Source: an uncultured bacterium
GTDB lineage: Bacteria; Bacillota_I; Bacilli_A; RFN20; CAG-826
Assembly: GCA_949299335.1 (NCBI GenBank)
Contig: CASGAD010000017.1
Span: 764 to 64,763, forward strand
Direction: 5' to 3'
DNA length: 64,000 bases
Numbering within the stretch: the first letter of the stretch is position 1; every line of letters begins with the position of its first letter. A program made the translations under genes and the position numbers. Of the stretch, positions 3,714 to 50,378 are shown in pieces. The notes under the pieces were generated by a model, which was not told the DNA's origin, searched no databases, and saw only the letters and a program-made list of their open reading frames with translations.

Positions 3714-3787
3714 ATAAATTAATTTTATAAATTATATTTTAATGTGAAAATAATAATTAAAGTACAATAATATAGTTGGTTATTATT

Positions 3788-8282: not shown

Positions 8283-8283
8283 T

Positions 8284-8928: not shown

Positions 8929-8929
8929 A

Positions 8930-32683: not shown

Positions 32684-33123
32684 ATTTAAACGATATTAAG
32701 ATTACTTTAATTTTAAAGTTGATATAATCAAGAAATATTTTTATTTATTAAGAATTCATAGCAAATTTAAACTTTAATTTAGTTCTATGATATATTTTTT
32801 GATATGAAAAAATAGAGGGAACAAATGATGGTAAAAGAACTAGTTTTAATATATAAAGGGGTGAATGAAGTCAATGCTACGTGTGGCATTGACATTATTA
32901 GTCTTGCTATTAAAACTAGTTCTTTTATTACTAGAAGAATTAAATTGAGCATTAGTTATTTTATTAGATCAATTTACTATTACTTTTATTATATCTTTAC
33001 TTCATTAAGAACTTATAGTTATTAACTTATTGACTACTTTATAGCTAAGTAAAGCTAATGAAGTATATTAAGAACCTTGGATTTGACTATTACAAACTTA
33101 ATGTTCTTAATAGTTAAATAGAT

Positions 33124-33287
33124 AAAATATCGACCTAGACTAACAATAATTTCTTTCCTATTAAACATATTTGGTTAACAAAGAAGTGCAAATAAATGTC
33201 ACTTTTAAATAAAAAAATGCGTTAAATTAAATTTTTCTCTACAATTTACGAAACTAAAAATTTCTGAGTTAGTCTAGGTCATATTTT
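33124..33287. repeat. inverted repeat pair (13 bp perfect, 20 of 21 with flanks) bracketing about 123 bp
   Basis: AAAATAT-C-GACCTAGACTAAC (33124-33144) against GTTAGTCTAGGTC-ATATTTT (33268-33287). Confidence 0.9.
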
Positions 33288-33288
33288 G

Positions 33289-33318
33289 AATAACTTCCAT
33301 GTTTGGAAGTTATTTTTT
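33289..33318 (+). terminator. intrinsic terminator hairpin in a region with no annotated gene
   Basis: AATAACTTCC (33289-33298), loop ATGTTT, GGAAGTTATT (33305-33314), running into T6. Confidence 0.75.
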
Positions 33319-33525
33319 ATTTTATGAAACTTAAATTTTAATTCGAGTAAATTTAAAGAAATTTCTAGTTTTTTACTGATAGAGTCTTTATTAGGGTCAA
33401 TTTATGTCATCATTAATCATAAAGAGTGTCACTATTTTGTTATTTTTATGATCTATGGTTAATTAAAGCTTATGATTTTAGCTAAAAATATTACCTTTTT
33501 AAGAAAGTTAGATTATATCTAAAAA

Positions 33526-33555
33526 TTGACAAAGCATATTTTTTAGGGGTATCAT
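33526..33555 (+). promoter_or_regulatory. sigma-70-type promoter candidate for the 17-kb operon (TTGACA - 18 nt - TATCAT)
   Basis: -35 at 33526-33531 and -10 at 33550-33555. This would give a 5' UTR of roughly 185 nt containing nested inverted repeats (TAAGACTT/AAGTCTTA and ACTATT/AATAGT). Confidence 0.4.
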
Positions 33556-33746
33556 TAAGTCATGAAAAAAGTAAAAGGGCTTAAATAATTATTTGGATAA
33601 GCAAAAAGCAATAATAATTTAAGTTTTAAGACTTACTATTCTGAAATTCCTTAGTAATAGTATGTTTAGAAAGTCTTACTTATGGGGTAAAAAAGATAAC
33701 ATATTAAAAACCTCAAGAAGTTTCTATCTTAATGGAGGAGTATAAG

Positions 33747-34559
33747 ATGAGAAAATTAAAATCGGCAAATAAAAGAAAATGGATTGTCGGAGGAACGGCT
33801 TTTTTCCTTGGAGTGATGGTATTATCGACAGGTTTTGCGACTTGGATCATCGGTATCAATGTTGCTAGTGTAGATAATGGTGGCACAAACGCAATCGTAG
33901 ATGGAACTAAAAGTAATAATTTTGAATTAAAGGTAGATTTTACAAGAGATAATAGTATTATTGTGACTGAAAAAACAAGTTCTGATAGCCCTGCTAAAAA
34001 AGGCAATTTTACATTTGTAAACAATGGATATAAAGTAGATGAGGAATATAAAGACACAGACTTTATTGTATCTGGAACAATAACTTTAACTATTGGCAAT
34101 AATTCTGATTATTATGGCAAATCAATAGAGATAGTTCCTAGTTTTAATTATAGTGAACAAGGTGGAAAAATAGATGTCGATGATGAAAATAACGGCACTG
34201 ATAATAATAAGATTGATAATTATGAAGTTACATCGTGGAGAAATGCAGGAAATTATGAATATTTAGGTTTATGCGATTCAATAGAAGTGCCTACTAAAAC
34301 TAATGGCAATTGGACTGTTACTGATGATGGAACTAATATAGTTTACAAATTTGATGGAGAAATTGAGTTATTTAAGCGGGGCTCATATTTTAGTAATATG
34401 AAACCAAGTAAGTTTTATACAAGAACAACTACACCTGATTTTGTTGTTGATGGCGAAGCGTCAACCAAAATTGCTGCCGAAATGAATAAAATGGAAACGG
34501 CATTAAATGGAAAAAATATCCATGTTATATTAACAGCGCAAGCTAAGAAAGGCAATTAG
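33747..34559 (+). CDS. exported protein, paralog 1 of 5 (SipW-class-like signal peptide)
   Basis: ATG 33747 follows GGAGGAG. N-terminus MRKLKSANKRKW plus a hydrophobic helix ending GFATWIIG. The C-terminal region GSYFSNMKPSKFY matches the family motif. Confidence 0.75.
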   Translation: MRKLKSANKRKWIVGGTAFFLGVMVLSTGFATWIIGINVASVDNGGTNAIVDGTKSNNFELKVDFTRDNSIIVTEKTSSDSPAKKGNFTFVNNGYKVDEEYKDTDFIVSGTITLTIGNNSDYYGKSIEIVPSFNYSEQGGKIDVDDENNGTDNNKIDNYEVTSWRNAGNYEYLGLCDSIEVPTKTNGNWTVTDDGTNIVYKFDGEIELFKRGSYFSNMKPSKFYTRTTTPDFVVDGEASTKIAAEMNKMETALNGKNIHVILTAQAKKGN

Positions 34560-34571
34560 CATAGGCTTTTT

Positions 34572-35363
34572 ATGAAAAGCAAGAAGAATACAAAAATTTT
34601 GGGATTATGTATCTCATTTGCATGTGTTGCAATTGGTACTATAGGTTTATCAACATGGCTTATTGGTGTTGAGGATACAAAAGAAGAATTAAGTTTAACT
34701 TTAAGCGTTGATAACGTTAATTCAACTAGCTTGATTCTTGAGGCAACGTTTGAAGATGATCAAACTATAGCAATTGCAGAACGTGTCTCATATACTAAAG
34801 GAAGTAATGATATTATTGGTACTGATGATAAAGGTGGACTTAGTATTTCAGAAAACTCTTTATCATTTTCTTTTTCTGCTTTAAATATTTATACAACTGA
34901 TGAAAATTTTGATTTGAAAAAGTATAAATTGACAATTGATGTCGCTTTGCCAGAAGAGAATAAAATAAGTGTTAAAGAAACTACTAATTCCACTACAGTA
35001 TTTCATCCAAATGAAACTGATTTTAACTATTTAACTTTTAACACAATTTCATGGGGAGGCGAAAATCTCAGTAATAAGATTTCGAAAGATAACGATTATA
35101 CTTCATCAAACGGATTATATAGATATCAATTAAATAATGGTGAGAATAATTTTAAACTGGAATGGGGCAATTTTTTTGAGCAGAAATCGCCTGTAAATTT
35201 TTATAATGAGAAATATCATGTTGTATCATCAACGTTAACCGCAGAAGAAAAAGTTTCTTATGTTAACGCGGCTGTTAATGAAATAACTACAATGAAAAAC
35301 AGATTGGAGGATGCGACTGTAAAAGTAACAGTTACGCTTGAGACTTATGAAAGCCAACAATAA
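34572..35363 (+). CDS. exported protein, paralog 2 of 5
   Basis: N-terminal basic region plus a helix ending GLSTWLIG. C-terminal FKLEWGNFFEQKSPVNFY. Confidence 0.75.
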   Translation: MKSKKNTKILGLCISFACVAIGTIGLSTWLIGVEDTKEELSLTLSVDNVNSTSLILEATFEDDQTIAIAERVSYTKGSNDIIGTDDKGGLSISENSLSFSFSALNIYTTDENFDLKKYKLTIDVALPEENKISVKETTNSTTVFHPNETDFNYLTFNTISWGGENLSNKISKDNDYTSSNGLYRYQLNNGENNFKLEWGNFFEQKSPVNFYNEKYHVVSSTLTAEEKVSYVNAAVNEITTMKNRLEDATVKVTVTLETYESQQ

Positions 35364-36099
35364 AAATAAAAAAATAATTTTTATTATCTCTTCCATTATG
35401 TGTGTTTCTGTGCTTTCTGTTGGATTATCAACATGGGTTGCAGGAATTGAAGTTAAGAATGATTCTGATTATGCAACGATTGAAGTTGATAGTGTTTCGA
35501 ACCAATCTAAATTTTTAGATATTGTATTCGCAAATGGTGAAAAGATAGTATTATCTGAAAATACGACTGGTGATGTTTGGAAAAATGATGGGTCAGAAGC
35601 TGATTTCGAACTTGATATATCTTCTAGTAGAGTAATGCTTGGAAAGGGATTAAGTGGTAATTCGCCAACCGTCTCATTATCTAAAATTGAGTTCAATAAA
35701 GAAAATTTCACTTATAATAATATAAACACTGGTATTTTTTATAATAATAATGGCAGCCAGTTATCTTATATCAAATTGAAATCTAGTTATCAAGAAATAA
35801 CATGTACTCAAATATCAGAAAATGACTTGTCTGAATCTGAAAAGAATTTGTCTACTAATTATATTTTTTATAAATTGGACACTACAAAGATTGAATTCGA
35901 ATGGGGCAGTGCGTTTAATAATGAATCGCCATGTACATATTTAAATGATGAATATAGTAAATGGATCGGAGGCGAAGGAGTTGATTCAACGAATTTAGAC
36001 AAAGCTCAAAAAATTGCTGATCAAGAAAATTTTTTAAATGTTTTTAAAAATGCTTTTGATAGCTTAAAAATGACTTTCTTTTTTACATTGAATATTTAA
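35347..36099 (+). CDS. exported protein, paralog 3 of 5
   Basis: ATG 35347 (MKANNKNKK) is preferred; the track's start at 35338 is TTG. The helix ends GLSTWVAG. C-terminal IEFEWGSAFNNESPCTY. Overlaps paralog 2 by 17 nt. Confidence 0.75.
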   Translation: MKANNKNKKIIFIISSIMCVSVLSVGLSTWVAGIEVKNDSDYATIEVDSVSNQSKFLDIVFANGEKIVLSENTTGDVWKNDGSEADFELDISSSRVMLGKGLSGNSPTVSLSKIEFNKENFTYNNINTGIFYNNNGSQLSYIKLKSSYQEITCTQISENDLSESEKNLSTNYIFYKLDTTKIEFEWGSAFNNESPCTYLNDEYSKWIGGEGVDSTNLDKAQKIADQENFLNVFKNAFDSLKMTFFFTLNI

Positions 36100-36100
36100 T

Positions 36101-36925
36101 ATGATTAAACCAAAGCTGAAAAATAATAGAAATTTTGTTGTTATTACAACGTTGATAATGATTGCTTTAGTAAGCGTTGGTTTTTCAAGTTGGATTGCAG
36201 GAAATGGCGTGACAAGCAGTAACACATCTACAATGATTAATATGGAAATCGTTGCAAATCACGTAGTTTTTAGCGAAATAATACCTTATCAAAAGAGTGA
36301 AGATGGAACTTTTGAAAAAGTTGATAAAATTGGGGATATTAAGTTTGCGCCTGAAAATGATGTGATTGATGGTGAAAGCACAAGTAATTCGAATAATGTT
36401 GAAATTCCTATTGAAATTGAACTAATTGTGTCTAATACATTAAAAATTACCCAAATCGAAATGAATTCTAATATTTCCATTGGGGATACAGTAAATAATA
36501 CTGAAGCAGGAGCTTTTAATGATATAGAAATAACAACCAAAAACTTTTTTGACAGGGAAATTGGTAAATATCAATATATATGTTTGTCTGATGTAGATAT
36601 CGATATAACATCTTTGACATATGAGGATTATAAAATTGAAGGAAATGCTACCAGTTATAAAAAATATATTATTGATTTGACAGATAAACTCCAAATAAAT
36701 TATGGAAATTATTTTAACAATCAGTCACCACAAGAATTTTATAATAATGCAATAGGATTAGCACTTAGAAATTATCAGGCAAATCAAACAGAAGATAATA
36801 AAAATAAATATCTGCTTACAGTTCAAGAAGCATATAAAGAATTAGAACTGATGAGGGAAAAATTAGGAAGTCAGAAAATTAATATAGAATTTACAGTGTC
36901 AACTGAAGAATTAAGTGAGGTATAA
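36101..36925 (+). CDS. exported protein, paralog 4 of 5
   Basis: The helix ends GFSSWIAG. C-terminal LQINYGNYFNNQSPQEFY. The start lies 1 nt after the previous stop. Confidence 0.75.
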   Translation: MIKPKLKNNRNFVVITTLIMIALVSVGFSSWIAGNGVTSSNTSTMINMEIVANHVVFSEIIPYQKSEDGTFEKVDKIGDIKFAPENDVIDGESTSNSNNVEIPIEIELIVSNTLKITQIEMNSNISIGDTVNNTEAGAFNDIEITTKNFFDREIGKYQYICLSDVDIDITSLTYEDYKIEGNATSYKKYIIDLTDKLQINYGNYFNNQSPQEFYNNAIGLALRNYQANQTEDNKNKYLLTVQEAYKELELMREKLGSQKINIEFTVSTEELSEV

Positions 36926-36927
36926 AT

Positions 36928-37608
36928 ATGAAAAAAAACAAAAGCAAAAAAATGGTATGGATTGTAAGTTTACTTACATGCGTCGGGATTGGAACACTTG
37001 GTTTTGCTAGTTTCATTTTAGGAGGTGTTACTAGTGCAACAGAACAAGTCACAATTAATGTCGGTGATGTAGTAGATAATGCAGTCGTAACTAAAATTAG
37101 TGAAAATCCAGACTTGAATATTTCATTTGATTTTAAAAACAATGGTTTAAATGAAAGTATTACTAATGGAGATAATAAAACAGAAGATTTAGAGTTTTCC
37201 TTTACATTTACAATCTCAGCGAATAAGTCTCTAACTGAATTATTGCAAAATGTTACAATTAAATTCACTGCTAACGATGATTTATTATCTTATTCTAATG
37301 GAAATTATGTTAATTTGCCTTTTACAAATTTATCAGAAAATTCCATAACAATTGAGACTAAAGAGACAACAATAAGTGGAACAAATAATGCCAAAACTAT
37401 TGCTAAATCTACATTAAATTCAAACAACATGACCTTAAGCTGTGAGGTTACTTCGACATTTGAATGGGGATCTGAATTTGATAATAAAAATCCATGTGAT
37501 TATACTGCTACTGGATGGGAAAATAAATTAAGAACATTTGGAAATTTGAAATCTCAACATAGTAATCCAAAAATTGAAGTTTTAATTCAACCAAATTTGA
37601 AAGCTTAA
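36928..37608 (+). CDS. exported protein, paralog 5 of 5
   Basis: The helix ends GFASFILG. C-terminal STFEWGSEFDNKNPCDY. A8 and A7 tracts occupy codons 2-8. Confidence 0.75.
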   Translation: MKKNKSKKMVWIVSLLTCVGIGTLGFASFILGGVTSATEQVTINVGDVVDNAVVTKISENPDLNISFDFKNNGLNESITNGDNKTEDLEFSFTFTISANKSLTELLQNVTIKFTANDDLLSYSNGNYVNLPFTNLSENSITIETKETTISGTNNAKTIAKSTLNSNNMTLSCEVTSTFEWGSEFDNKNPCDYTATGWENKLRTFGNLKSQHSNPKIEVLIQPNLKA

Positions 37609-37611
37609 TAT

Positions 37612-38688
37612 ATGGATGGTATCGAAATAATATCGCTTTTAGTAACAATTATTTGTTTATTGAGTTTTTCAATAGTTTTTACTTTTCTTTTTAGACATTA
37701 TTATTTAAGTAATATTGACAAAGTGGTAAATGGACAATTTGATTTTGATTTGATTGATATGGCTGTAATTAGGGAACAAGAAAAAAATAACAAAAGTAAA
37801 AAAGTTTGGAATATCATTAAGAACGTTTTTAGTTATTTATTTCTTGCTATTGTGTTAATATTTTTTGGATTTTCTGTTTACTCTAGAGCAACAGGAAGTT
37901 TAATATCAGTCAATAATACAAGTTTAATTGTTATCGCAACGGGCTCTATGAGTAGCAAAAACAGCTATAATGATTATCTTTTTGATAGTGATTTAAGAGA
38001 AAAATATAACTTAGATAATCAATTTAAAGCCTATGATATTATTGGAATACAATCTTATGGTATTAATGAAGAACCACAATTATACGATGTAATAGCATTT
38101 CATGGCAAAGATGGACAAATTTATGTTCATAGGATTATAACAATTAATGATAATGGTTATGTTACTAGAGGTGATACAAACTCAATTAGCGATACAAATC
38201 AGTTATATGATGGCTATTTGCAAAAGGAAAATATAATTGGCTATTATAATGGAATTGATATACCAGCTGTAGGTATTTTTGTCGTTTTTCTCCAATCCAA
38301 TTCAGGAATTATTACAATTGTTTCAATCATATATTGTCTAATTATGTTTGAACATTTTAAAAATAAATACGAAGATGTAGCTGATAAACGTACTAAGTTG
38401 CTTTTGGAAACATTAGAATATAGTTTAGATACTGATGTTGAAGCTGAAAAGAAGATGTTAAAAGAAGATTTTGATTGTATTTTATTCAACGGATATAGAT
38501 TTACCTTCTCAAGTAATAAGTTAATAAAAAAGGAAGAACTTGGTAATGAAGAGTGCGCATTAGTAAGTGAGCATATAAAATCTTTTGACAATAATGACAA
38601 CAGCAAAGAAAAAAGTGGTAGTTCTGAGAATAGATTCTTAAATAAAATTAAAAAAGTTTTTAATAAAAATAAAACCAAAAAAGATTAA
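37612..38688 (+). CDS. sipW: SipW-type (S26B, ER/archaeal-type) signal peptidase I with extra N-terminal TM region and a roughly 110-aa C-terminal tail
   Basis: Catalytic-Ser box IVIATGSMSS, His box IYVHRIITI, and TRGDTNSISD. These align with B. subtilis SipW motifs (SGSMEP, THRV, KGDNN..D). A TM helix follows the catalytic domain as in SipW. 358 aa total. Confidence 0.8.
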   Translation: MDGIEIISLLVTIICLLSFSIVFTFLFRHYYLSNIDKVVNGQFDFDLIDMAVIREQEKNNKSKKVWNIIKNVFSYLFLAIVLIFFGFSVYSRATGSLISVNNTSLIVIATGSMSSKNSYNDYLFDSDLREKYNLDNQFKAYDIIGIQSYGINEEPQLYDVIAFHGKDGQIYVHRIITINDNGYVTRGDTNSISDTNQLYDGYLQKENIIGYYNGIDIPAVGIFVVFLQSNSGIITIVSIIYCLIMFEHFKNKYEDVADKRTKLLLETLEYSLDTDVEAEKKMLKEDFDCILFNGYRFTFSSNKLIKKEELGNEECALVSEHIKSFDNNDNSKEKSGSSENRFLNKIKKVFNKNKTKKD

Positions 38689-38708
38689 TTATATAAAGGA
38701 GAACTCAT

Positions 38709-40523
38709 ATGAAAACTCATTTTACAAGAAAGAACTTCATAGCAATAGCAATAATCTTTTTCTATGTATTGCTAGCGTTATTTAGTGGTCTTTGCATTGA
38801 TTCAATTAATCCTGTGTTGAAGGCAAATAATCCTATTCAAAAGATGGGATTAGCATTAGGATTTCCTGCTAATAATCCAGGATTCTGTGGATGGATATTT
38901 TTAGGGTGCGTTTCCCTTTATATCCTCATTTTTGCCGCAGCTTTTATATATGAAATGAGATTGGCAAAATACTATGAAAACAAAATTTTTACAAAAAAAT
39001 ACTCATTAATTTATCTATTAACTTTTTTAATTATATTTGGTGTTGGAATAGGGATTGCGTTAGCTGCTCAATATCCTTATGATCCTTCCTTTATGTTTAA
39101 TTCTTTCTTATTCGTAGTTGAGAGTTTGGTAATTGGGCTTTTAATTTTTCTCATCCTTGGATCAATTATAATGTTTGGCATCATGTTATATGTTAATTTT
39201 AAACATATCGATGAGCCATTTAGATTTTTTGGAAATAAAGTTAAAAATCAAGAACTTGATGAAGAAGCACAAGAGGAAGAAAATGAACAACTTCTTGAAG
39301 AACAGGGCAATCTTTCAGCTAGTTTTGGGGAAGCTTCTGGAAATGATAATAACTTTAATGGTGCTATTGCCGGTGGACAAGGAGGCAATGGTGAGGTTAA
39401 TCTCGGCAACGAAACAGTATTAAAAGATAAAGAGCGTGTATTTCCAGGATTATGCTCGATTGACTATTTCTCAATGTCAAAAGTGGACGAAGAATTTGAT
39501 GATGTTACCGACTTATCATTTTTATGTACTCAATTTAGAAATTATTTAGCAAAAAACGAAAAACTATATTTTGATATCGGAACAATAAGAGCTTTTATTT
39601 CAGGATTGGCGGCAAGTAGATTTATTATTCTTGAAGGTTTAAGTGGTACAGGTAAATCATCACTTGCTAGATACTTTAGCGATTTTATTGGAGAAGAGTC
39701 TTTCTTTGAGGCAGTACAAGCTACTTGGAGAGATAGAACGTCAATTCTCGGGTATTATAATGACTTTTCAAAAACTTATAATGAGACAGAATTTTTAAAG
39801 AGATTATATTCATCAACATTTAAGGATAATCATATAAATATAATGGTTCTAGATGAAGTCAATATTTCGAGAGTTGAGTATTATTTTGCAGACTTTTTGT
39901 CAATTTTAGAGTATCCAGTTGATAAGTGGGCTTTAAAAATTATGCAATTGCCATATGATTTTGATGCTCCTGAACATTTACAAGATGGTATATTAAAAAT
40001 TTCACCTAATACATGGTTTATTGGAACTGCGAATAAAGATGATTCAACATATACTATTACTGATAAAGTTTATGATAGAGCTATTACAATTTCTTTTGAT
40101 GACAGAAATGAACCTTTTGATGTGTTGGAAGATGTTAGTAAACTTAGAATTTCGTTTACTAAATTACAAGAATTATTTGCTGGAGCAACAAATAACGCTA
40201 AAAATAGATTGACAACGAGGGATTTAGAGAAATTTTCTATTATCACAAATTACACCTATGATACGTTCGATTTAACTTTCGGCAATAGAATTATGCGCCA
40301 AATCGAGACATTAGTACCAGTTTATGTCGCTTGTGGTGGCACAAAAGAAGAAGCTTTAGACTTTATGTTCTCTAAGAAAGTTCTTTCAAAACTTGATGGA
40401 AGATTTGAAGACTATATTAAAAAAGGTTTAACAAACCTAAAATCTCTTATTGAAAAAACCTATGGTGATGAATCGTTTAAATTATCAAAACATACAATCG
40501 ATAAATTAGTAAGAAAGTTATAG
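38709..40523 (+). CDS. McrB-family AAA+ GTPase fused to an N-terminal four-TM membrane domain
   Basis: AAGGAGA lies upstream of the ATG. Residues 1-165 form about 4 TM helices, followed by an acidic and G/N-rich linker. Walker A is EGLSGTGKSS. Walker B plus the McrB signature reads MVLDEVNISRVEYYFADFLSILE. The GTP-specificity-like segment is FIGTANKDDSTYTITDKVYDRA (NKxD). Confidence 0.7.
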   Translation: MKTHFTRKNFIAIAIIFFYVLLALFSGLCIDSINPVLKANNPIQKMGLALGFPANNPGFCGWIFLGCVSLYILIFAAAFIYEMRLAKYYENKIFTKKYSLIYLLTFLIIFGVGIGIALAAQYPYDPSFMFNSFLFVVESLVIGLLIFLILGSIIMFGIMLYVNFKHIDEPFRFFGNKVKNQELDEEAQEEENEQLLEEQGNLSASFGEASGNDNNFNGAIAGGQGGNGEVNLGNETVLKDKERVFPGLCSIDYFSMSKVDEEFDDVTDLSFLCTQFRNYLAKNEKLYFDIGTIRAFISGLAASRFIILEGLSGTGKSSLARYFSDFIGEESFFEAVQATWRDRTSILGYYNDFSKTYNETEFLKRLYSSTFKDNHINIMVLDEVNISRVEYYFADFLSILEYPVDKWALKIMQLPYDFDAPEHLQDGILKISPNTWFIGTANKDDSTYTITDKVYDRAITISFDDRNEPFDVLEDVSKLRISFTKLQELFAGATNNAKNRLTTRDLEKFSIITNYTYDTFDLTFGNRIMRQIETLVPVYVACGGTKEEALDFMFSKKVLSKLDGRFEDYIKKGLTNLKSLIEKTYGDESFKLSKHTIDKLVRKL

Positions 40524-40527
40524 TCAT

Positions 40528-41943
40528 ATGTTTAGAAAAACTTATTATTTAAAAGGATTTAATAAATTTATGTTTAGAAATTTTAAATCTAAGATGAGTT
40601 TTTCTATGCTTGAAGATTTTATTAAAAATAATAATATTGAGTTCTCAACTGTTTTTAACTATGAAGAAGTGCTTAAAGAATCAATAGAAATTAAACGTGT
40701 TGTCGACAAAATTTATTCAATAGTTTATAAGCCTCACATAAAAAGTGATATTGAAGAGGTTGTTTTAAGAAGTGAACAAGCAACATCTGTTTCTAATAGA
40801 AATTTTTTTGAAACAATAAAAGATCCGAAATTATGGAAATCAAAAGATAATGTAATGACTCCAGAATATGTTCATACAACAATAAACATTGATACAATTG
40901 ACACATACGAAAATCGATTTATCTCTTTATTGATAAGTTTACTTTCTGAAGAGCTTAAAGAGTTGTTGAGTGAGATGACTCCATTAATTCAACCATTTGA
41001 AGAAAAGATGGAATTGAACCTTTTAACATATGGTGAACATTCAATATTAAATGACTTCCCAGATAATGAAGTAATCGAGAATGTATTTACTGAAAATGAA
41101 TCCATTAAGGCAAAAGCTTATAAAACAGCAATTAAATTGTTTAAACGTATTAATATCTTAAAAGAGACAGAATTTTTTAGAATTACGTCAAAGCATAAGC
41201 CATTAGAAGTTATGCCTACAAACATCTTAATACATGATTCTTTATATAGTTATTGTTATAAATTTTATAAGAATATGTTACTTGATGATGAAAAAGATAA
41301 ATATTTGAATGATATTTATTATCATAATTATGTTGTAATTACATTAATCGACTATATTTTTAAAAATGTTAAAAAAATAGGTTCGACAATTAAAAATGCT
41401 AAATTATATTTTGATGAAAATGGCATGTTACATTTTGAAAAATTTAATTTTAGAAATGGAGCATTTAAATATTATATTGATGAAGTGTCAGACAATTATT
41501 TAAAGTGTGAAACTTTTTATTTAGGGAATGACCAAGTCAGTAAAAAAGAAACAAATATATATAAAAGTATTAACTACATTACTACAACTTATTCATTAAA
41601 TGATGAGTTTTATGCTAAATTTTATAACGACCATAAACTTAATGATTATGGATTGCTTGTTGTGACTTGCAAAAATATTTCAAAAAAGGTTGGAAATATA
41701 ATGACAATTTCGCCATATTATAACAATCACACTAGTTTAATAAGAAATTATTTTAAATCCCTGTCACTGCTATTTGACTGCGATGGAACTATATACGAAA
41801 ATGAATGTCCAGTATGCGGCAAAAAAGAAGTGGATTTCGAAACAAATGGATATATATGCCATAATTGTAAATCCAAGTATGCGATTCTAAATGAAAAAAA
41901 GAATTTACTATGGATACAGTCTTTTAGGAGGAAATCTGAATGA
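40528..41943 (+). CDS. McrB-partner-like protein (DUF2357/McrC-like N-terminal half suspected) with a C-terminal CxxC...CxxC zinc ribbon
   Basis: Sits immediately after the McrB-like gene (4-nt gap). IDTIDTYENRFISLLISLL resembles the D-T-x-E-N-R-F motif I associate with DUF2357-type McrB partners. The zinc ribbon is CPVCGKKEVDFETNGYICHNCKSKY. No clear PD-(D/E)xK motif was seen by eye. Confidence 0.45.
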   Translation: MFRKTYYLKGFNKFMFRNFKSKMSFSMLEDFIKNNNIEFSTVFNYEEVLKESIEIKRVVDKIYSIVYKPHIKSDIEEVVLRSEQATSVSNRNFFETIKDPKLWKSKDNVMTPEYVHTTINIDTIDTYENRFISLLISLLSEELKELLSEMTPLIQPFEEKMELNLLTYGEHSILNDFPDNEVIENVFTENESIKAKAYKTAIKLFKRINILKETEFFRITSKHKPLEVMPTNILIHDSLYSYCYKFYKNMLLDDEKDKYLNDIYYHNYVVITLIDYIFKNVKKIGSTIKNAKLYFDENGMLHFEKFNFRNGAFKYYIDEVSDNYLKCETFYLGNDQVSKKETNIYKSINYITTTYSLNDEFYAKFYNDHKLNDYGLLVVTCKNISKKVGNIMTISPYYNNHTSLIRNYFKSLSLLFDCDGTIYENECPVCGKKEVDFETNGYICHNCKSKYAILNEKKNLLWIQSFRRKSE

Positions 41944-42740
41944 ACGAAGAGAAAATTAATAATATTTTCGATGAAACCGATGAAAATATGACCATTTCAG
42001 ATATTAACATCCCTGAATATGTTTTAGAAGTTAAAGACTTATATAAAAGTTATGGAAGGAAAGATGTTTTAAAAGGACTAGATATTAGTGTAAAAAAAGG
42101 TGAAGTATTTGGATTTATTGGTAAAAATGGTATTGGTAAATCAACTACTATAGATTGTATTGTTGGTCTTAAAGAGCCAAATAGTGGTGATATTTTAATT
42201 TGTGGGAAGGATGCTAAAACTCAGCCTTTAGAAGCAAAGATGCTATTTGGCTATGTACCTAGCGAACCAACCACCTATGAAATGATGACTGGCAATGAGT
42301 ATTTACAATTTATTGCTTCAAGCTATGGTATGTTACAAAGTGCTTTTAACAAAAATTATGAGTTTTTATTAAAAAAATTTTCTATGAGTGTTATTGATAT
42401 GAATAGAAAAATAAAGGAATATTCTCATGGTATGAAACAAAAAATTTGCTTAATGGCGAGTTTAATTCATAATCCTAAATTATGGATATTGGATGAGCCA
42501 ACAGTGGGACTTGATATTATGGTTTATGAAGTTCTTTTAAAAATGATTAAGGACTTCGCATTATATGGCAAAACTGTTTTTATCACCTCACATAATATCG
42601 ATCTTGTTTCTAAAGTTTGTGATAGAGTAGCAATTATTAATAACGGAAAAGTTGAAGTCCTAATTGACTTAAATAAGGAACCATTAAAGAGAAGAGATTT
42701 ATCAAGAATTTTCTTAAATGTATATGGTAATCAAGAATGA
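41940..42740 (+). CDS. ABC transporter ATP-binding protein (ABC-2 exporter type)
   Basis: Walker A GKNGIGKST, signature-like YSHGMKQK, Walker B LWILDEPTVGLD, H-loop TSHN. An ATGA overlap with the upstream gene. Confidence 0.9.
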   Translation: MNEEKINNIFDETDENMTISDINIPEYVLEVKDLYKSYGRKDVLKGLDISVKKGEVFGFIGKNGIGKSTTIDCIVGLKEPNSGDILICGKDAKTQPLEAKMLFGYVPSEPTTYEMMTGNEYLQFIASSYGMLQSAFNKNYEFLLKKFSMSVIDMNRKIKEYSHGMKQKICLMASLIHNPKLWILDEPTVGLDIMVYEVLLKMIKDFALYGKTVFITSHNIDLVSKVCDRVAIINNGKVEVLIDLNKEPLKRRDLSRIFLNVYGNQE

Positions 42741-44347
42741 TGGTAATTGAATTAATAAGAAAAGAACATCTTGAAAGAAAAGAAGTAACATCAAAAAGCA
42801 AAGTTGCTAATATTTTCTCTTTACTATTAAAAGTTATATTTATTGGCTGTTTTATTGCTTTGGAGTGCTATATATTCTTTTCTTTAGACAAAAAAATAGA
42901 AAAATATTCCGAATATGGAACATTTGATTTTTTGGTCCTCTTTTTGTTTACAATGATGATTGTTAGTATTATTAGTTCGACAGTTAGAGCGAGGAAAACA
43001 CTTTTTAATCATTTAGACAATAATGTTCTTTTGCCGCTGCCAATTTCTACTGGAGAATTAATTTTTAGTAAAATTTTATACATCTATTTGCAAGAAGTTG
43101 TGACACATTTTATTGTTTCAACACCTATTTTAATTGTGTTTGGTTCTACTAGAATGTATATCCCTTACTTTTATGTATTTTCTATTTTATATCCATTACT
43201 AATTAGTTTATTTAGTGTAGGTTTAGCGTTGTTTTTTGTTGTAATATATCAGTTTATTTATCAATTAATTAAATTAAGTGATATAGTACAATTTATTTTA
43301 GCATCGATTTTAGTTATAGGATTGTGCTTCGTTTATCAAGTTGTTTTAAACTTATTTTTAAACGCACTAAGGGATTCAATGATTGGTGGTGTATTTGATA
43401 AAAACTTTATTGATTCATTGCATAACTCCTTATACTATCTTGTACCAATTTATTATTTGTTTGACTCTGTTATTAATGGCACAAACATTCTTTCTAATGT
43501 ATGTATTTTGCTTGGTTCAATCATCATTTCATTATCGTTAGGGGTTACGATTTCTAGTGTTGCATACATCAAATTAAGCAAAAATGAAATTGACTTATTT
43601 GTTAAAAGAGAAAATCAAAAAGAAATTAAAATGATTTCTCCATTTAGAATGTTATTAAAAAAAGAATTTGACATCATTTTTAAAGACAGTGGAAATATAT
43701 TTTCCTACACATCACTATTGATTATGGCTCCTTTTTTAACATATGTTGTTATTTCTAGTTTAAACACAGTCCTATATCAATCTTTAACTCAATTTTTAGT
43801 TTATTTTCCTGAGTTAATAAATGTCATTAACATCAGTTTAATAATATTATTCTCAAGTGTTATTAATAGCAGTGCATCATTATCAATGTCTCGTGAAGGA
43901 AGATGCATTCAAATAGTAAAATATATACCTATTTCACCTTTTAAACAAATATTAGCTAAATTAATAATACCAACTAGTTTATCTATTTTTTCTCTATTAA
44001 TTACTATAATTGTGATTGGAAGTTCTGGAGTAGTTTCTCCATTAGCAACATGCATGTCATTACTGATGGGTATTTTATTAATTGTTTCAAATAATATTTA
44101 TGCAATTTATATTGATATGCATGACCTAAGCGATTTCAATAATAAATTACTATTTATTAATGAATTAATATCAATAGGATTCCCTGTTTTAATCTTAACA
44201 TTTAACTTTTTAATGATTTTCTTTGGAGTCCCTTCTTATGGTATGTATCTATTATCAATTACTTTATATATAGTTTTATTTGTATCAAGTATTATTAAAA
44301 TGAAAAGTAGATCAACCAAACTTTTTAAAAGGATGGAGGTAAGATAA
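42737..44347 (+). CDS. polytopic membrane protein, presumed permease partner of the ABC ATPase
   Basis: 536 aa with at least 12 hydrophobic helices. An ATGA overlap with the ATPase gene. No named family recognised. Confidence 0.6.
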   Translation: MMVIELIRKEHLERKEVTSKSKVANIFSLLLKVIFIGCFIALECYIFFSLDKKIEKYSEYGTFDFLVLFLFTMMIVSIISSTVRARKTLFNHLDNNVLLPLPISTGELIFSKILYIYLQEVVTHFIVSTPILIVFGSTRMYIPYFYVFSILYPLLISLFSVGLALFFVVIYQFIYQLIKLSDIVQFILASILVIGLCFVYQVVLNLFLNALRDSMIGGVFDKNFIDSLHNSLYYLVPIYYLFDSVINGTNILSNVCILLGSIIISLSLGVTISSVAYIKLSKNEIDLFVKRENQKEIKMISPFRMLLKKEFDIIFKDSGNIFSYTSLLIMAPFLTYVVISSLNTVLYQSLTQFLVYFPELINVINISLIILFSSVINSSASLSMSREGRCIQIVKYIPISPFKQILAKLIIPTSLSIFSLLITIIVIGSSGVVSPLATCMSLLMGILLIVSNNIYAIYIDMHDLSDFNNKLLFINELISIGFPVLILTFNFLMIFFGVPSYGMYLLSITLYIVLFVSSIIKMKSRSTKLFKRMEVR

Positions 44348-46819
44348 ATGAAAAAGAAGACTCTTATTATTTTATTAATTATTCCTTTTGTTATTGGATT
44401 AATATCTTTTGTTAGCGTTGTTTTATTAAATATTACGGTTGCTAGTGATATTAGTGGAATTGATTTTGATTACCGTGAACAAGAAGGATTTAAAATTAGA
44501 GATGCTGGGTATGAATTAAAAGCTACTCCAGTAGTAAGTGACATATTAATTTTAGCACCTGATAATGATTTAATGTGGTATGTAAAAGAAGAGACTAATG
44601 TAGCTAAAATCGAAGAAGATGAAGAAAATAACTATTATTTATTTGCTTTAGAAGAAGGTGAATGTACAGTAGTTTGCTCAAACGTTAAAAAGAGCGTTCA
44701 AAGGGAATTTAAAGCTATAATTTATGAAAACGGAACAATATTAATTAATCCTACTAGAACTCAAAGCGGTCAACAAGTTGAATCAACTCGTTATTACGGA
44801 TTGTATGATTTAGAGTATGATGAAGTGAAAATGGATGGAGCTAAAAAGGTTAATTCAACTATTGAATTTGATATAGATGTCGTAGGAGACAATGTAAAAA
44901 CTGATAAGGTTAGTGTTTTAGATAAGAGTGATAATTTAACTTATTCAAATAATGTGATAACGATTAATTCTTATGCTGAGAATTCTTATGTGACTTTAGT
45001 AAGTGTTGATCAACCATTCATTTCTAATACATATACATTTAAACTTGTTAAAGATGGTGTAAATGTCTATGACTACAATGATTTATTAATGTGTACAAAC
45101 TTCTCAACTATTGGAGAAATTGTTGTTATGCAAACTTCTTTAGGAAGTTTAAGAGAAGTATATGTAGGAAAAGATGTTGAAATTGATTCCACATATACAA
45201 GCCAGGGCATTTATAAGTATGAAATAGATCCATCATTTACTAAAAAAAGTGGCAATATTAGTTTATTTGGTAATTATGATGAAAAGAGTGGAACATTTAA
45301 TTTTGCTAATGAATTAGTTTATATTGAAACTAGCTATAACCATAAATTTATAGATGATTATAACGCAAATCGCGGGACAAATATTTCTACAGAAGTAAAG
45401 GTAGGCATAAAAGTACAAAAAGATTTCTATGGAAATGGTTTTTCAATCAATATGAATAATTTATGTTTCCCAAATAATGGTAGTATTGACATCAATCTTA
45501 AAAAGTTAGCGCCTGATTATGAAAAAGATTATTTCTTTGGCCCACTTGCTTTCGTGACAATAGGAGATCCTAGTGGGAACCAGCCATTTGTTAAAGCTTA
45601 TGGTCAAGACAATGCCGGAATGATGCTTAAAGGAAATGGAATTATAGTCAACGACTTAAGAATACAAAATATTGATGATAACTCTAATAAACGCAACTAT
45701 GCTTTTACTGGAACTGTTATTGAAGTAAAAGGTGATGACATAACAATTAAAAATTCAACTGTTAAATTAGGCAAGAATTTAATTAGTGCCTTCGATACTA
45801 AAAATCTCACTATTAAAAATTGCATTTTAACTAGAAGTAGCGAATTTAATTTAAAAGTAGGCAGTAATCAAATTATGCCTTATGATAACAGTAAAGTCAT
45901 TGATGTCACAATTGGTGGCACAAAATATAGTGTCCCATTTGATGAATTCTTTGATATTAATTCAACTAACATTGCTTCAGCTAATATGATTTTGGAAGAG
46001 TTTCTTGGTGCAGGCAATGGAATTTTCTTAAATCAAAGAGAAATGTTTGAATCATTAAGAATTTTGCAAAATGCTTTAAATAATGAATCTTATGATGAAG
46101 ACATATATGCTAGCGAAGTCATTGTTGAAGATGTCTTGTTTGATGACTCTGGATTATTTTCAATAGGTTTAGAAACTGAATTTAATGGGCCTTTTTTGTA
46201 CAATGGTGGTTCCCAAACTTTAGTTTCGACATTAGGCGGAATGCTGCAAAGTGACATACCAAATAAGATAGGTGGAACATCTCTTCCTTCTAAAGTTACA
46301 ATTAAAGGAAAGACAAAATTCTATGATTGGAAAAAGTATACCGATATCGATACAACCAGTTTAATAGAAGAGAGAATTTCTGTTTTTGCATCAAGTGCAT
46401 TGGGACAAGATATCGAACTCTCAATCGATGACTTCTTTCCAATGAAACCTATATTAAAGGATATGTGTAAATCAAAAGGATATATTTATACTAAAGATAA
46501 TGAAGAATATATTAATACAATAATTGCGTATTATGGAGGAGGATTAAATAATTCAATTGTAATAAAAGAGATTGAAAATGCTGAAAATACTTTTAGCGAT
46601 GACATATATGTTGATTTATTGACTAATATCGATAAATATGTTGCATCAATAGATGGTGGAAGAATTGATTCTCTAATTAAAATCTTATCTAAATGTGTTC
46701 TTTTTGCAGCAGGCTTTGAGCCTTTTAAATTTATTACAAATGGAAAAGTGACACAAAATGTTGACCCTGAATTATTTAACGAAAATCCACAAATAAGCGA
46801 TTTAAAAGCTAATTTATAA
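44348..46819 (+). CDS. 823-aa membrane-anchored or exported protein with Ig-like and parallel beta-helix-like regions
   Basis: The start abuts the previous stop (TAAATG). The N-terminal helix ends IGLISFVSV, a variant of the locus motif. NLTIKNCILTRSSEFNLKVGSN and ITIKNSTVKLGKN resemble PbH1 repeats. Confidence 0.6.
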   Translation: MKKKTLIILLIIPFVIGLISFVSVVLLNITVASDISGIDFDYREQEGFKIRDAGYELKATPVVSDILILAPDNDLMWYVKEETNVAKIEEDEENNYYLFALEEGECTVVCSNVKKSVQREFKAIIYENGTILINPTRTQSGQQVESTRYYGLYDLEYDEVKMDGAKKVNSTIEFDIDVVGDNVKTDKVSVLDKSDNLTYSNNVITINSYAENSYVTLVSVDQPFISNTYTFKLVKDGVNVYDYNDLLMCTNFSTIGEIVVMQTSLGSLREVYVGKDVEIDSTYTSQGIYKYEIDPSFTKKSGNISLFGNYDEKSGTFNFANELVYIETSYNHKFIDDYNANRGTNISTEVKVGIKVQKDFYGNGFSINMNNLCFPNNGSIDINLKKLAPDYEKDYFFGPLAFVTIGDPSGNQPFVKAYGQDNAGMMLKGNGIIVNDLRIQNIDDNSNKRNYAFTGTVIEVKGDDITIKNSTVKLGKNLISAFDTKNLTIKNCILTRSSEFNLKVGSNQIMPYDNSKVIDVTIGGTKYSVPFDEFFDINSTNIASANMILEEFLGAGNGIFLNQREMFESLRILQNALNNESYDEDIYASEVIVEDVLFDDSGLFSIGLETEFNGPFLYNGGSQTLVSTLGGMLQSDIPNKIGGTSLPSKVTIKGKTKFYDWKKYTDIDTTSLIEERISVFASSALGQDIELSIDDFFPMKPILKDMCKSKGYIYTKDNEEYINTIIAYYGGGLNNSIVIKEIENAENTFSDDIYVDLLTNIDKYVASIDGGRIDSLIKILSKCVLFAAGFEPFKFITNGKVTQNVDPELFNENPQISDLKANL

Positions 46820-46831
46820 GAGGTAAAAGTT

Positions 46832-47956
46832 ATGAGATTTAAAAAAATTAAAAAAATGTGCTTAACTCTAAGTATATTGTTGGGAAGCGTTTCAATTTCT
46901 AGTTGTTCTGCCTTTTTTGGTAGTGACGAGTTAAATATATCAAGCACTGATATAAAAACTGATGATAATGGCAACACAACAGTAACTATTACTTTTACTG
47001 ATGAGAGCAAAAGCCCTTTAACTTTTACAATTCCTAGTGCAATTAACGGAGAAGATGGTGTTGGTATCGCAACGGTAACAAGTGAATTAAGTGAAGATAA
47101 GACACTTGTAACTATAATAATTACATATACTGATTCAAACAGAGAACCAACTGTTATAACGGTTCCTGTTTATAAAGGAGAAGACGGAAAAGAAATAACT
47201 AATTTTATTTGTAACTATGATGAAGATGGAAATACGACAGTAGTTGTTGAATATAGTGATGGCACATATAGTGACGAATTTACTATAAAAAAAGGTGAAG
47301 ATGGAAAAGGAATTAGTAATATAATTATGAATTCCGATCAAAATGGTAACTATGAGATAACAATTGTTTATACAGATGGCACATCCGAGGAACCTATTTA
47401 TTTAAATTCAGGTGTTGGCATTGCTTCTATTATTTATGATGAGAGTAAAAGTGATGAAGAGTACTATTGCTTAGTGGTTTATTACACTGACGGAAATAGT
47501 GAGGAAATTTATGTCCCAGCTCCACAATCCACTAAGTGGCTGAGCGGAAATGCCTATCCTTCTAATGATTTGGGAAATGAAGGAGACTTCTATGTAATAG
47601 AAAGTAGTGGAGCTGTTTATAAAAAAACTGGTGGAACATGGAGATATTTATTTAGCATTAAAGGCGTTGGAAGTGATTTAACTTATACAGTCACTTTTAA
47701 TCTTAACGGAGGAAAGTGGATAAACGGAGATTTAACAAATCCAGATATATCTTCAACTGAAGTAAGAACAATTAGTGGATTAGCATATGGCGCTTTTATT
47801 GATTTAAATCAAGATAATTTGAAATGTTATAATGAAGATGAAAACTTAGATTTTAAAGGATGGTGGAGTGATGCTGTGATTACACCAAATTCTGGTCATT
47901 TTACAAATTTAACTGCTGTTACTAAAGATCTTAGTTTATATGCGATTCGGGGGTAA
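46832..47956 (+). CDS. lipoprotein with about five 45-50-aa GEDG-containing repeats and a C-terminal Listeria-Bacteroides (Flg_new) repeat
   Basis: Lipobox SISSC. Repeats read GEDGVGIATVTSE.../KGEDGKEITNF...EYSDGT/KGEDGKGISNI...VYTDGT. The C-terminus TYTVTFNLNGGKW...LDFKGWWSD matches the Flg_new pattern. Confidence 0.7.
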   Translation: MRFKKIKKMCLTLSILLGSVSISSCSAFFGSDELNISSTDIKTDDNGNTTVTITFTDESKSPLTFTIPSAINGEDGVGIATVTSELSEDKTLVTIIITYTDSNREPTVITVPVYKGEDGKEITNFICNYDEDGNTTVVVEYSDGTYSDEFTIKKGEDGKGISNIIMNSDQNGNYEITIVYTDGTSEEPIYLNSGVGIASIIYDESKSDEEYYCLVVYYTDGNSEEIYVPAPQSTKWLSGNAYPSNDLGNEGDFYVIESSGAVYKKTGGTWRYLFSIKGVGSDLTYTVTFNLNGGKWINGDLTNPDISSTEVRTISGLAYGAFIDLNQDNLKCYNEDENLDFKGWWSDAVITPNSGHFTNLTAVTKDLSLYAIRG

Positions 47957-47959
47957 ATA

Positions 47960-48703
47960 ATGATCGGTAGAAAGTCCAATAAATGTACATTGATTGTAAT
48001 TGCAATTGCTAGTAGCATTTGCCTTTTTAGTTTTGGATTTTCAACTTTTATTATTGGTGAAGAAGCTGGTCAAAAATCAACTGATATTCAATTCAATTAT
48101 GGAGATGTAATAATATCTAGTGATTATCTTTCGTTAAATACTGCGAAAGGTGATGGTACTAAATTGCCATATACAGGAATTAGTATGTTTAATTATAATT
48201 CTAGTGGATTTGTAGTTAATGAAACTATGATGTTTAGTACTTTCATTACATATTATGTTAGATTTGATGTAGTATCTTTTTATAAAAATTATAGTGAAAA
48301 TATTGTAAATTTCTCACTAAATCTTTCATATGCAAATGCGTCTCGAGATAATTATGCATTGTTGAGTTCGAGTTATTTTGATCAAAATTCTTCAAGTGTA
48401 AAGTATTATAGGGGTACTAGTGGTTCTTATTTTTCGAGTGCAACTATAAACACCGGAATAAGTAATGAAAATTTTTTAATTGATGATATCAATAAGAAAA
48501 TATCATTTTCCTTTACTTATGAGTTTACTCCAAATGACTATGCAAATACTAACACTATGTGTCGGTTTGAATTTAAGTTTTCATTTAATGCAAATGACAA
48601 AGCATCTTTTGATTATCTGTATAACAATGAATTTCATATAACTGATAGCAATCTCGAACAATCTAGTTATAGATTAAGTGTAGGAATAAATTATGAAGAT
48701 TAA
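47960..48703 (+). CDS. exported protein with the locus signal-peptide motif (not a close paralog of the first five)
   Basis: N-terminus MIGRKSNK plus a helix ending FGFSTFIIGE. The body is rich in S/N/Y/F and beta-like. Confidence 0.65.
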   Translation: MIGRKSNKCTLIVIAIASSICLFSFGFSTFIIGEEAGQKSTDIQFNYGDVIISSDYLSLNTAKGDGTKLPYTGISMFNYNSSGFVVNETMMFSTFITYYVRFDVVSFYKNYSENIVNFSLNLSYANASRDNYALLSSSYFDQNSSSVKYYRGTSGSYFSSATINTGISNENFLIDDINKKISFSFTYEFTPNDYANTNTMCRFEFKFSFNANDKASFDYLYNNEFHITDSNLEQSSYRLSVGINYED

Positions 48704-50345: not shown

Positions 50346-50378
50346 GAGAATAGGGATTATATTGATGCGAACTTAAAT

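Follow-up and report, generated by a model that had tools for sequence, protein, structure and literature searches.

McrBC is the textbook GTP-driven restriction motor, in which the N-terminal domain of classical McrB is a flexibly linked targeting module and the N-terminal DUF2357 domain of McrC activates McrB. A major branch of the McrB family is defined by an N-x-D variant of the signature motif, with a glutamate or second aspartate as the usual next residue; the signature asparagine has been equated with sensor-1, and no NxD-type McrB has been characterised so far (PMC11090510). In the same study (Bell et al. 2024), one clade was named CoCoPALM, for 'pilus assembly linked to McrBC', and given three sentences only. 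We found no literature on CoCoPALM after that study and no account, computational or experimental, of the class with four transmembrane helices (4-TM) described here, while the sole overlap in the literature on SipW plus McrB was an E. coli strain genotype. This class is represented in a stretch of 64,000 nucleotides (nt), hereafter the window, from an uncultured bacterium of the lineage CAG-826 (Bacillota; contig CASGAD010000017.1 of assembly GCA_949299335.1, positions 764 to 64,763 of the forward strand). Two adjoining open reading frames (ORFs) on its + strand encode an ATPase of 604 amino acids (aa; ORF A, 38709-40523) and, after a gap of 4 nt, a partner of 471 aa in the position of McrC (ORF B, 40528-41943), both being real genes judging from the many relatives found for each. 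We give an even chance to the reading that this pair is a membrane-tethered, nuclease-dead McrB-McrC nucleoside triphosphatase (NTPase) module of a surface-fibre or secretion apparatus, and not a restriction enzyme.

The ATPase is built of a membrane anchor (residues 1-165, 38709-39203), a linker (166-238, 39204-39422) and an AAA+ NTPase domain (239-604, 39423-40520), which profile searches and invariant residues place in the McrB family. A search of 177,635 PDB sequences with a profile of the soluble part (17 diverse relatives) recovered E. coli McrB as the only significant match (6hz4_A, 6ut6_A, 7vsr_A; E 7.4e-10 to 1.3e-9), with an alignment that spans Walker A, the extension of Walker B (DEvNisR in the ATPase, DEINRA in McrB) and the Asn/Asp signature (N-x-D in the ATPase, NTAD in McrB); the next match (E 0.064) covers the P-loop only. 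Comparison of the ATPase profile with McrB from the K-12 genome by hhalign gave a probability of 97.5% (E 4.9e-12). A search of the PDB with the single sequence returned no match, and a profile of the full-length family was discarded, as its hydrophobic N-terminus drew spurious matches to G-protein-coupled receptors and other membrane proteins; the search was redone with the soluble part and gave McrB.

Walker A (GLSGTGKS, residues 310-317) lies at 39636-39659, Walker B (VLDEVN, 380-385, within VLDEVNISR 380-388) at 39846-39863 and the signature N442-K-D444-D445 at 40032-40043, followed by DKVYDRA (452-458). Across 28 diverse relatives the residues G310, G313, G315, K316, D382, N385, R388, N442, D444, D456, R457 and R527 are invariant, and given this invariance of the catalytic motifs the NTPase looks fully functional. 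Relatives carry the signature as GTANQD, GTANRD or GTANMD; since N442 and D444 never vary while D445 may be D, E or G, the signature is read from the alignment as the NxD variant of the CoCoNuT/CoCoPALM branch and not as a Ras-type NKxD guanine-specificity motif. The first-pass annotation of this DNA, made from the sequence alone, had recognized the McrB family from its Walker motifs, which the profile searches favour, and had taken NKDD for the guanine-specificity motif, which is an error.

The anchor comprises four helices, both by hydropathy (hydrophobic segments at ~10-30, 58-80, 98-120 and 128-162) and in an AlphaFold model that drew on 28 homologues (mean pLDDT, the model's predicted local distance difference test score, 82), in which long N-terminal helices occupy residues 7-30, 58-88, 96-119 and 126-165. 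The distribution of lysine and arginine fits an N-in/C-in topology, so the ATPase domain is predicted to lie on the cytoplasmic side. The linker is acidic and Gly/Asn-rich (E 14, G 12 and N 11 among 95 residues counted) and is modelled as a disordered stretch (166-238) with pLDDT <50 across most of 175-236, after which the AAA+ domain is modelled confidently. Neither protein shows a long coiled coil in its AlphaFold model, the sole candidate being a low-confidence helix at 179-202 within the linker, and searches of residues 1-238 against Pfam and further domain libraries gave no match. Pfam DUF4199 (PF13858) is precomputed on two relatives of the ATPase (P0003 and P0012), where it presumably marks the membrane domain, and the kinship to McrBC goes unrecognized in their annotation. 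Full-length relatives of 602-617 aa number more than 3,500, of which the best 120 listed share 58-68% identity with the ATPase, except one at 98%; an all-against-all library search gave 7,788 representatives of related clusters at E <=1e-3 and 681 at E <=1e-30. The nearest ~45 relatives have the four-helix anchor, and its topology is retained in all close relatives at a mean identity of just 19%. Mean identity falls along the protein from 59% in the core through 40% in the lid and 19% in the anchor to 10% in the linker, which ranges in length from 22 to 116 residues and contains 22% D+E. At locus L035 (8656-11638) two adjoining ORFs of 393 and 564 aa match the ATPase, as also happens in L015 and L055, which means that the gene is either duplicated in tandem or else frameshifted or split.

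The partner is a McrC homologue. Its DUF2357 domain (PF09823; residues ~62-150, 40711-40977) scores 27.4 bits against a Pfam cut-off of 23.3, and partners at four related loci (L050, L066, L076 and L077) score 31.7-47.8 bits. The ORF B model (pLDDT 81, predicted TM-score 0.75) finds McrC as its best fold match in the PDB (6hz4_M, E 5.8e-3, probability 0.84; then 6ut6_G), together with weak matches to the PD-(D/E)xK-fold proteins Bax1, Ecl18kI and MspJI, all with TM-scores of at most 0.25. An hhalign comparison of the partner family with E. coli McrC was not significant, and a partner profile searched against the PDB matched with the zinc ribbon alone, to ribbons of the ribosomal L37Ae type. 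That Cys4 ribbon (C427-x2-C430-x13-C444-x2-C447, 41806-41868) has all four cysteines invariant in 26 homologues and is retained in the partners of nearly all 4-TM loci. In the same 26 sequences the other invariant residues cluster in DUF2357 (E83, T96, W103, PEYV 112-115, D122, YEN 127-129) and in a helix at 231-247, and the alpha/beta region at ~250-420 is poorly conserved, with F313 as the only invariant residue between 250 and 420. An explicit search for a PD-(D/E)xK pattern in the C-terminal half found none conserved, as the candidate acidic positions vary and are not followed by lysine. Hence, the partner most probably retains a degenerate nuclease-type fold stripped of catalytic residues, followed by a zinc ribbon. 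This layout of inactivated PD-(D/E)xK domain plus ribbon is known from some CnuC proteins of CoCoNuT systems, the ribbons of which are suspected to bind nucleic acids (PMC11090510). Relatives of ORF B number 39, with 24-44% identity, besides one near-identical (97%) and one partial sequence; one of them (P0135) is publicly annotated as 'TFIIB-type zinc ribbon-containing protein', with the kinship to McrBC again unrecognized.

Most of what the first-pass annotation had described of these two proteins is borne out: the 4-nt gap and McrC position of the partner, a polytopic membrane domain of ~165 residues replacing the DNA reader, the acidic Gly/Asn-rich linker, a DTYENRF motif (residues 125-131) reminiscent of DUF2357 partners, the CxxC-x13-CxxC ribbon, and the want of a convincing PD-(D/E)xK triad. 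A standard type IV restriction system with an intact nuclease, which it had named as the opposite outcome, does not agree with a partner that conserves no catalytic residues. In the profile and fold checks that it had suggested, profiles give McrB for the ATPase and the fold search gives McrC for the partner, while the fold search with the ATPase does not list McrB among its best 50.

The pair lies in the middle of an operon of 15 genes, all on the + strand (33732-51053), with intergenic distances of -26 to +33 nt. The operon opens with five paralogous genes (33732-37608) for secreted or anchored proteins of 275, 263, 253, 274 and 226 aa, which have in common a Lys-rich N-terminal segment, a hydrophobic segment with G-[FL]-[SA]-[TS]-[WF]-[ILV]-x-G at its end, and a C-terminal WGxxF...P..FY motif. 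From these features they are presumed to be signal-peptidase substrates and are candidate fibre subunits. The next gene (37612-38688, 358 aa) encodes a signal peptidase I of the SipW/archaeal type. Neither of its matches, to TIGR02228 (E 3.7e-13) and to the SipW model (E 2.1e-12), reaches the curated cut-off. The peptidase contains three hydrophobic segments and a C-terminal tail of ~100 aa, and its GSM at 111, HR at 173 and GDTN at 187 are read as the Ser/His boxes of the family. The ATPase gene starts 20 nt after the end of the peptidase gene. Downstream, ORF B overlaps by 4 nt the gene for an ATP-binding cassette (ABC) ATPase of the ABC-2/DrrA-like type (41940-42740, 266 aa), which has 4-nt start/stop overlaps on both sides and is followed by a polytopic ABC permease (42737-44347, 536 aa; Pfam 12TM_1 is recorded on its orthologue in L001). 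Then come an N-terminally anchored protein (44348-46819, 823 aa), a protein with a putative lipoprotein signal and a weakly matching Listeria-Bacteroides repeat (46832-47956, 374 aa), two proteins of 247 and 550 aa with the signal-anchor motif of the paralogue type (47960-50345) and the last operon gene (50379-51053, 224 aa). The motif G-[FL]-x-[TSN]-[WF] at the end of the hydrophobic segment is common to seven operon proteins. None of the secreted proteins has a Pfam, NCBIfam or PDB match, and no TasA/camelysin or SipW-cognate-signal model was matched by them at a lax NCBIfam threshold or by a paralogue profile searched against the PDB. For the second paralogue just 6 relatives were found, all with at least 85% identity, pointing to very fast divergence. 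The listed TTG start of the third paralogue (35338-36099) overlaps the preceding gene by 26 nt, and the methionine at residue 4 (MKANNKNKK...) is probably the true start because it fits the paralogue N-termini better.

To place the pair among its relatives we scanned one genome per species and recovered 80 loci (L002-L081), all in gut or rumen metagenome-assembled genomes (MAGs) labelled Bacilli, Mollicutes, Acholeplasmatales or, often doubtfully, Clostridia, with Candidatus Onthovivens as the closest named relative. A survey of this kind, of McrB homologues with membrane-spanning N-termini and their neighbourhoods, had been suggested by the first-pass annotation, and it bears out the idea of repurposing inside an export operon. 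Synteny was mapped without profiles, using the window's own proteins. The order of paralogues, SipW, ATPase, partner, ABC ATPase, permease, 823-aa protein and 374-aa protein is whole in 44 of the 59 loci of the 4-TM class and persists down to 35% ATPase identity (L047 and L075); 6 further loci are consistent with it and truncated at contig ends, and in the remaining 9 the pair lacks the operon neighbours. A SipW gene lies directly upstream of the ATPase in ~50 loci, ABC transporter genes follow the pair in at least 44, relatives of the paralogues lie upstream in most, and the genes for the 823-aa and 374-aa proteins are syntenic in most. Operon order is thus strictly conserved and the pair is a fixed component of it. 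Identity declines from the ATPase through the partner to the paralogues, the pattern expected of a cytoplasmic engine that serves fast-evolving surface parts. Six operon-bearing contigs carry the labels Bacteroides uniformis, Roseburia hominis, Lachnospiraceae or Muribaculaceae (L033, L041, L002, L009, L074 and L076) and are probably mis-binned or misnamed.

The related loci also include other settings for pairs of this kind. In two of the nine 4-TM loci without the operon neighbours, both from Clostridia-labelled MAGs (L049 and L050, ~1.4-12.4 kilobases, kb), the McrB/DUF2357 pair closes a type IV pilus operon, following genes for pilins, PilD, a protein of 465-506 aa with no assigned family, PilC and PilB. 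Pfam matches in L050 comprise the N-terminal methylation motif, Peptidase_A24 (prepilin peptidase), T2SSF/PilC (E 8e-56) and T2SSE/PilB (E 6e-129). In a rough neighbour-joining tree with bootstrap, the deep branching order of which is unresolved, the subgroup with these two loci forms a sister subclade within the 4-TM clade (97%). A shorter class of ATPases, of the CoCoPALM type (~501 aa, signature GTINNDD, loci L059-L081), has a single membrane helix followed by an FtsB-like coiled-coil segment, as in the N-terminal sequence '...LIIFLIYRSIKVYIRYRRNVKKEDMLIDEIDSLNNEIFKLKRQN' with its FtsB-like layout. Its partner, encoded directly after, is a DUF2357 protein of ~365 aa that has no ribbon, and the pair lies near SipW-like peptidases and proteins with signal peptides ending in '...ATYAYF', which we take to be an ending of the TasA type. 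The same tree separates the 4-TM from the FtsB-like class as two clades (72% and 76% bootstrap). In three loci (L059, L063 and L073, ~9.8-12.5 kb) pairs of the shorter class adjoin apparent cell-division or cell-wall genes, read by eye from N-terminal sequences; presumably these are mraZ-rsmH-ftsL and a penicillin-binding protein (PBP) gene in L063, and PBP, MraY and FtsW genes in L059 and L073. In view of the FtsB-like fusion, a link of this class to division is conceivable. A soluble form occurs in cultured, and therefore experimentally accessible, isolates of Butyrivibrio species (L077 and L079, 3958-13348), as part of a complete CoCoNuT-type operon that encodes a UPF1/Mokosh-like helicase (1,037 aa), a winged helix-turn-helix (wHTH) protein, an NxD McrB of 780 aa and a DUF2357 protein of 762 aa; the AAA+ part of the ATPase shares 44-45% identity with these McrBs.

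The operon of the window probably makes, processes and exports surface proteins that share a SipW-type signal-anchor motif, as a fibre, pilus or matrix apparatus, and the pair itself probably now serves in the envelope and no longer in restriction. That it drives or gates the assembly or export of the signal-anchored proteins is a proposal as apt to hold as to fail. The membrane domain would stand where classical McrB has its DNA-binding 'targeting' domain. Six ATPase subunits, each with its anchor and leash, would assemble immediately beneath the membrane into a ring like that of E. coli McrBC, and one partner would insert its DUF2357 domain into the ring and switch on hydrolysis of GTP (or ATP). 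Because the anchor sits on a leash of 22-116 residues, the ring would be positioned at the inner face of the membrane without being rigidly coupled to it. The nucleotide cycle would then act on a membrane-proximal client, thereby driving or gating assembly or export, and no nucleic acid would be cut. Candidate clients are the Lys-rich cytoplasmic N-termini of the signal-anchored precursors, the long tail of SipW and the ABC exporter. Rings of the McrB family are known to work as translocating motors that the partner stimulates (Niu 2020 and Nirwan 2019, cited in PMC11090510). We suggest more tentatively, with a chance well short of even, a hitherto undescribed type of envelope machine, in which the McrB-McrC ring is indispensable as engine or gate for assembling or exporting the fibre subunits that SipW processes. 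It would act together with the dedicated ABC exporter, in the part played elsewhere by a PilB-type ATPase, by a sortase or by a chaperone-usher pair.

Several observations weigh against an engine of this kind, and the alternatives draw on some of them. The linker is disordered and of variable length, making it a poor transmitter of force; the pilus-linked relatives already have a PilB, and to call the pair the assembly ATPase would be too simple there; TasA-type fibres of Bacillus, to our knowledge, assemble outside the cell and need no dedicated cytoplasmic NTPase; no similarity of the secreted paralogues to TasA or any pilin could be detected; the nearest soluble relatives belong to predicted defence operons of the CoCoNuT type (L077); the AAA+ part matches the PADLOC defence-candidate model PDC-M26A (E 1.6e-32); the fibre, secretion and NTPase roles of family members are themselves predictions from sequence; and a Foldseek search with the ATPase model ranks MCM, dynein, NorQ, CbbQ and RavA at the top (E ~1e-5, TM-scores 0.2-0.5), with McrB outside the best 50. 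The last of these would suit an ATPase that is a MoxR/NorQ-type AAA+ chaperone beside an unrelated gene, its likeness to McrBC being superficial, and Pfam likewise offers just a sub-threshold match to AAA_5, a family common to McrB and NorQ/CbbQ. The Foldseek ranking is generic and leaves McrB unlisted, so fold comparison is unable to separate members of AAA+ clade 7, whereas the sequence profile matches McrB alone and returns no NorQ, CbbQ, RavA or other MoxR-family chain from the PDB even at E up to 10. Given also the hhalign result, the alignment of Walker B extension and N-x-D with those of McrB, and a neighbouring gene that encodes DUF2357 in place of the VWA-domain partner of MoxR systems, this possibility, which the first-pass annotation had itself raised, is highly improbable. 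A different use of the same parts would be a membrane-tethered nucleotide switch for regulation or quality control, which would monitor the state of the export machinery and decide when SipW processes or the ABC transporter exports, with the NTPase as timer. A variable, flexible leash and a weakly conserved anchor (19%) suggest localisation over force coupling, the unusual extra membrane segment and tail of ~100 aa of the window's SipW may be a docking site, and the type IV pilus operons that contain the pair also encode a complete PilB/PilC motor. The variable disordered linker also argues for a tether and against a rigid mechanochemical coupling to the membrane domain; the first-pass annotation had offered a mechanochemical motor as one possibility. 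No feature of the sequence tells switch from motor; the translocating activity of McrB-family rings noted above, together with catalytic and arginine residues that are all invariant, which one would expect if hydrolysis is sustained, speaks for a motor, and we consider the switch unlikely.

We hold an anti-phage or abortive-infection role to be similarly doubtful. In such a role the membrane-associated pair would guard a surface structure that is a likely phage receptor, or sense DNA or RNA entering at the membrane, with the zinc ribbon binding nucleic acid and an unrecognized effector encoded elsewhere. Its appeal derives from the NxD branch, the soluble members of which are predicted defence systems and the corresponding CoCoNuT ribbons of which are suspected nucleic-acid binders (PMC11090510), from the PDC-M26A match and from the helicase-wHTH-McrB-McrC operon of L077, the closest soluble relative examined. 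Yet the partner has no conserved nuclease residues and matches no PADLOC model, the 15-gene operon contains no recognizable nuclease, HEPN or other effector, and the nuclease-less McrC homologues of CoCoNuTs always adjoin another nuclease (PMC11090510). At least 44 species have the pair in one fixed place, with SipW on one side and the ABC genes on the other, unlike the patchy distribution of defence islands, and the ATPase core is unusually well conserved. Nor was the full 4-TM architecture found in the phage-contig and plasmid collections searched: 2.9 million viral contigs gave a single match, confined to the AAA+ part (L083, IMG/VR, 98.5 kb, 8001-8993), and among 72,556 plasmids 286 records match the AAA+ part, with 0 covering at least 80% of the ATPase. 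The viral match shares 37% identity over ATPase residues 264-582 and may itself be a phage-borne soluble NxD McrB. A sensor for defence or abortive infection, as the first-pass annotation had suggested, thus fits poorly, in keeping with how its interpretation fared overall: family, anchor, nuclease loss and repurposing stand, the NKxD reading is wrong, and the defence role is poorly supported.

The surroundings of the operon contain ordinary chromosomal genes, among them those for a major facilitator superfamily transporter, a LacI regulator, glycoside hydrolases, ribonucleotide reductase and the Der GTPase, and no mobile-element features were seen at its flanks. The window has a GC content of ~27% and reads well with the standard bacterial code. 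Upstream of the operon lies a gene-poor gap of 1,048 nt (32684-33731) and downstream one of 659 nt. The upstream gap holds a terminator-like hairpin (33288-33315) and, on the + strand, a candidate sigma-70-type promoter (TTGACA-18-TATCAT, 33526-33555, 11/12 matches) ~175 nt before the first gene; it is the best in the region, and as such sites are not enriched over shuffles in AT-rich DNA it serves as a positional lead only. An Rfam search of the whole window gave tRNA only and nothing in the 1-kb leader. The protein of 840 aa encoded before this gap (30161-32683) shows only a weak likeness to sigma-70 region 4 at residues 227-299 (RpoD_Cterm, E 1.4e-4) and has a relative in the same position at L006; it is a possible dedicated regulator of the operon. 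Elsewhere in the window there are a tRNA-Gly(CCC) (1442-1515), a DUF1848 protein (3776-4705) and glycoside hydrolases of families GH3 (8930-11932) and GH2 (26039-28603). This is the ordinary chromosomal context of a saccharolytic gut bacterium.

The window offers a compact example in which the nuclease has been lost, the DNA reader has been swapped for a membrane anchor and the pair has gained a fixed place in a surface-protein operon. With an abundant family (more than 3,500 sequence clusters in gut metagenomes) at hand, what a McrBC motor does once it has ceased to touch DNA becomes a directly testable question. If the ring is indeed an obligatory engine or gate for fibre subunits, this would be the first job for a McrBC motor that does not involve nucleic acid, and would imply a new surface-filament pathway in gut Bacilli with reduced genomes. 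The operon suggests that abundant, uncultured gut Bacilli related to Candidatus Onthovivens build a surface structure not yet characterised, and this structure could matter for adhesion, biofilm formation or host interaction. The pair also advises caution in annotation, as matches to McrB or to PADLOC candidate models do not automatically indicate defence systems.

Comparison with known systems shows which parts of the pair are shared and which are its own. With E. coli McrBC (6hz4, 6ut6) it shares an AAA+ domain with Walker A, Walker B and Asn/Asp signature, and a partner with an activating N-terminal domain encoded directly downstream; an assembly of ring plus one partner is probable. It differs in that the ATPase has no DNA-reading N-terminal domain and carries NxD in place of NxxD, the partner has no conserved PD-(D/E)xK triad, and there is no restriction-modification linkage. 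PDC-M26 resembles the pair through component A, which matches the AAA+ part of the ATPase; the match is limited to residues 268-401 and a second stretch, the N-terminal 300 profile positions do not match, and the partner matches neither PDC-M26B nor any other PADLOC model. Because PDC-M26A also matches the CoCoNuT-type and CoCoPALM-type relatives, that is every NxD relative tested, it is a generic NxD-McrB model, and membership in PDC-M26 was rejected. The sipW-tasA/tapA operon of Bacillus subtilis and the sipW-bsaABC operon of Clostridium perfringens likewise set a SipW-type peptidase beside paralogous secreted proteins that share a motif at the end of the signal peptide; the secreted proteins of the window differ from theirs in having no detectable TasA/camelysin similarity, and we know of no McrBC-like pair or ABC exporter in those operons. 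In C. perfringens the SipW-dependent TasA-like matrix proteins depend in part on type IV pilus genes (PMC11580942), and this link makes the SipW and type IV pilus contexts of the 4-TM family mutually consistent, which is not in itself a test of the proposal.

The closest likenesses lie within the NxD branch. With CnuB and CnuC of CoCoNuT systems the pair shares the branch itself, the second aspartate after N-x-D and, for some CnuC proteins, the C-terminal zinc ribbon and inactivated nuclease fold; unlike them it has no coiled coils, no cold-shock or other nucleic-acid-binding domains and no helicase or HEPN neighbours, and it is membrane-anchored and lies within a secretion operon. CoCoPALM systems resemble it further, in an NxD-type McrB with a membrane-anchoring N-terminus, a DUF2357 partner directly downstream, linkage to signal-peptidase-family genes and signal-anchored proteins, and occurrence in Bacillota. 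In contrast to the described class, with its single helix and FtsB-like coiled coil, the window's ATPase has four helices and an acidic linker and lacks a coiled coil; its partner keeps a degenerate alpha/beta domain and a Cys4 ribbon, neither of which is present in the partner of the ~501-aa class; its operon adds an ABC exporter; and it falls in a separate clade. Given that the NxD branch and its membrane-anchored, pilus-linked offshoot have already been named, the pair of the window is an undescribed variant of systems of the CoCoPALM kind.

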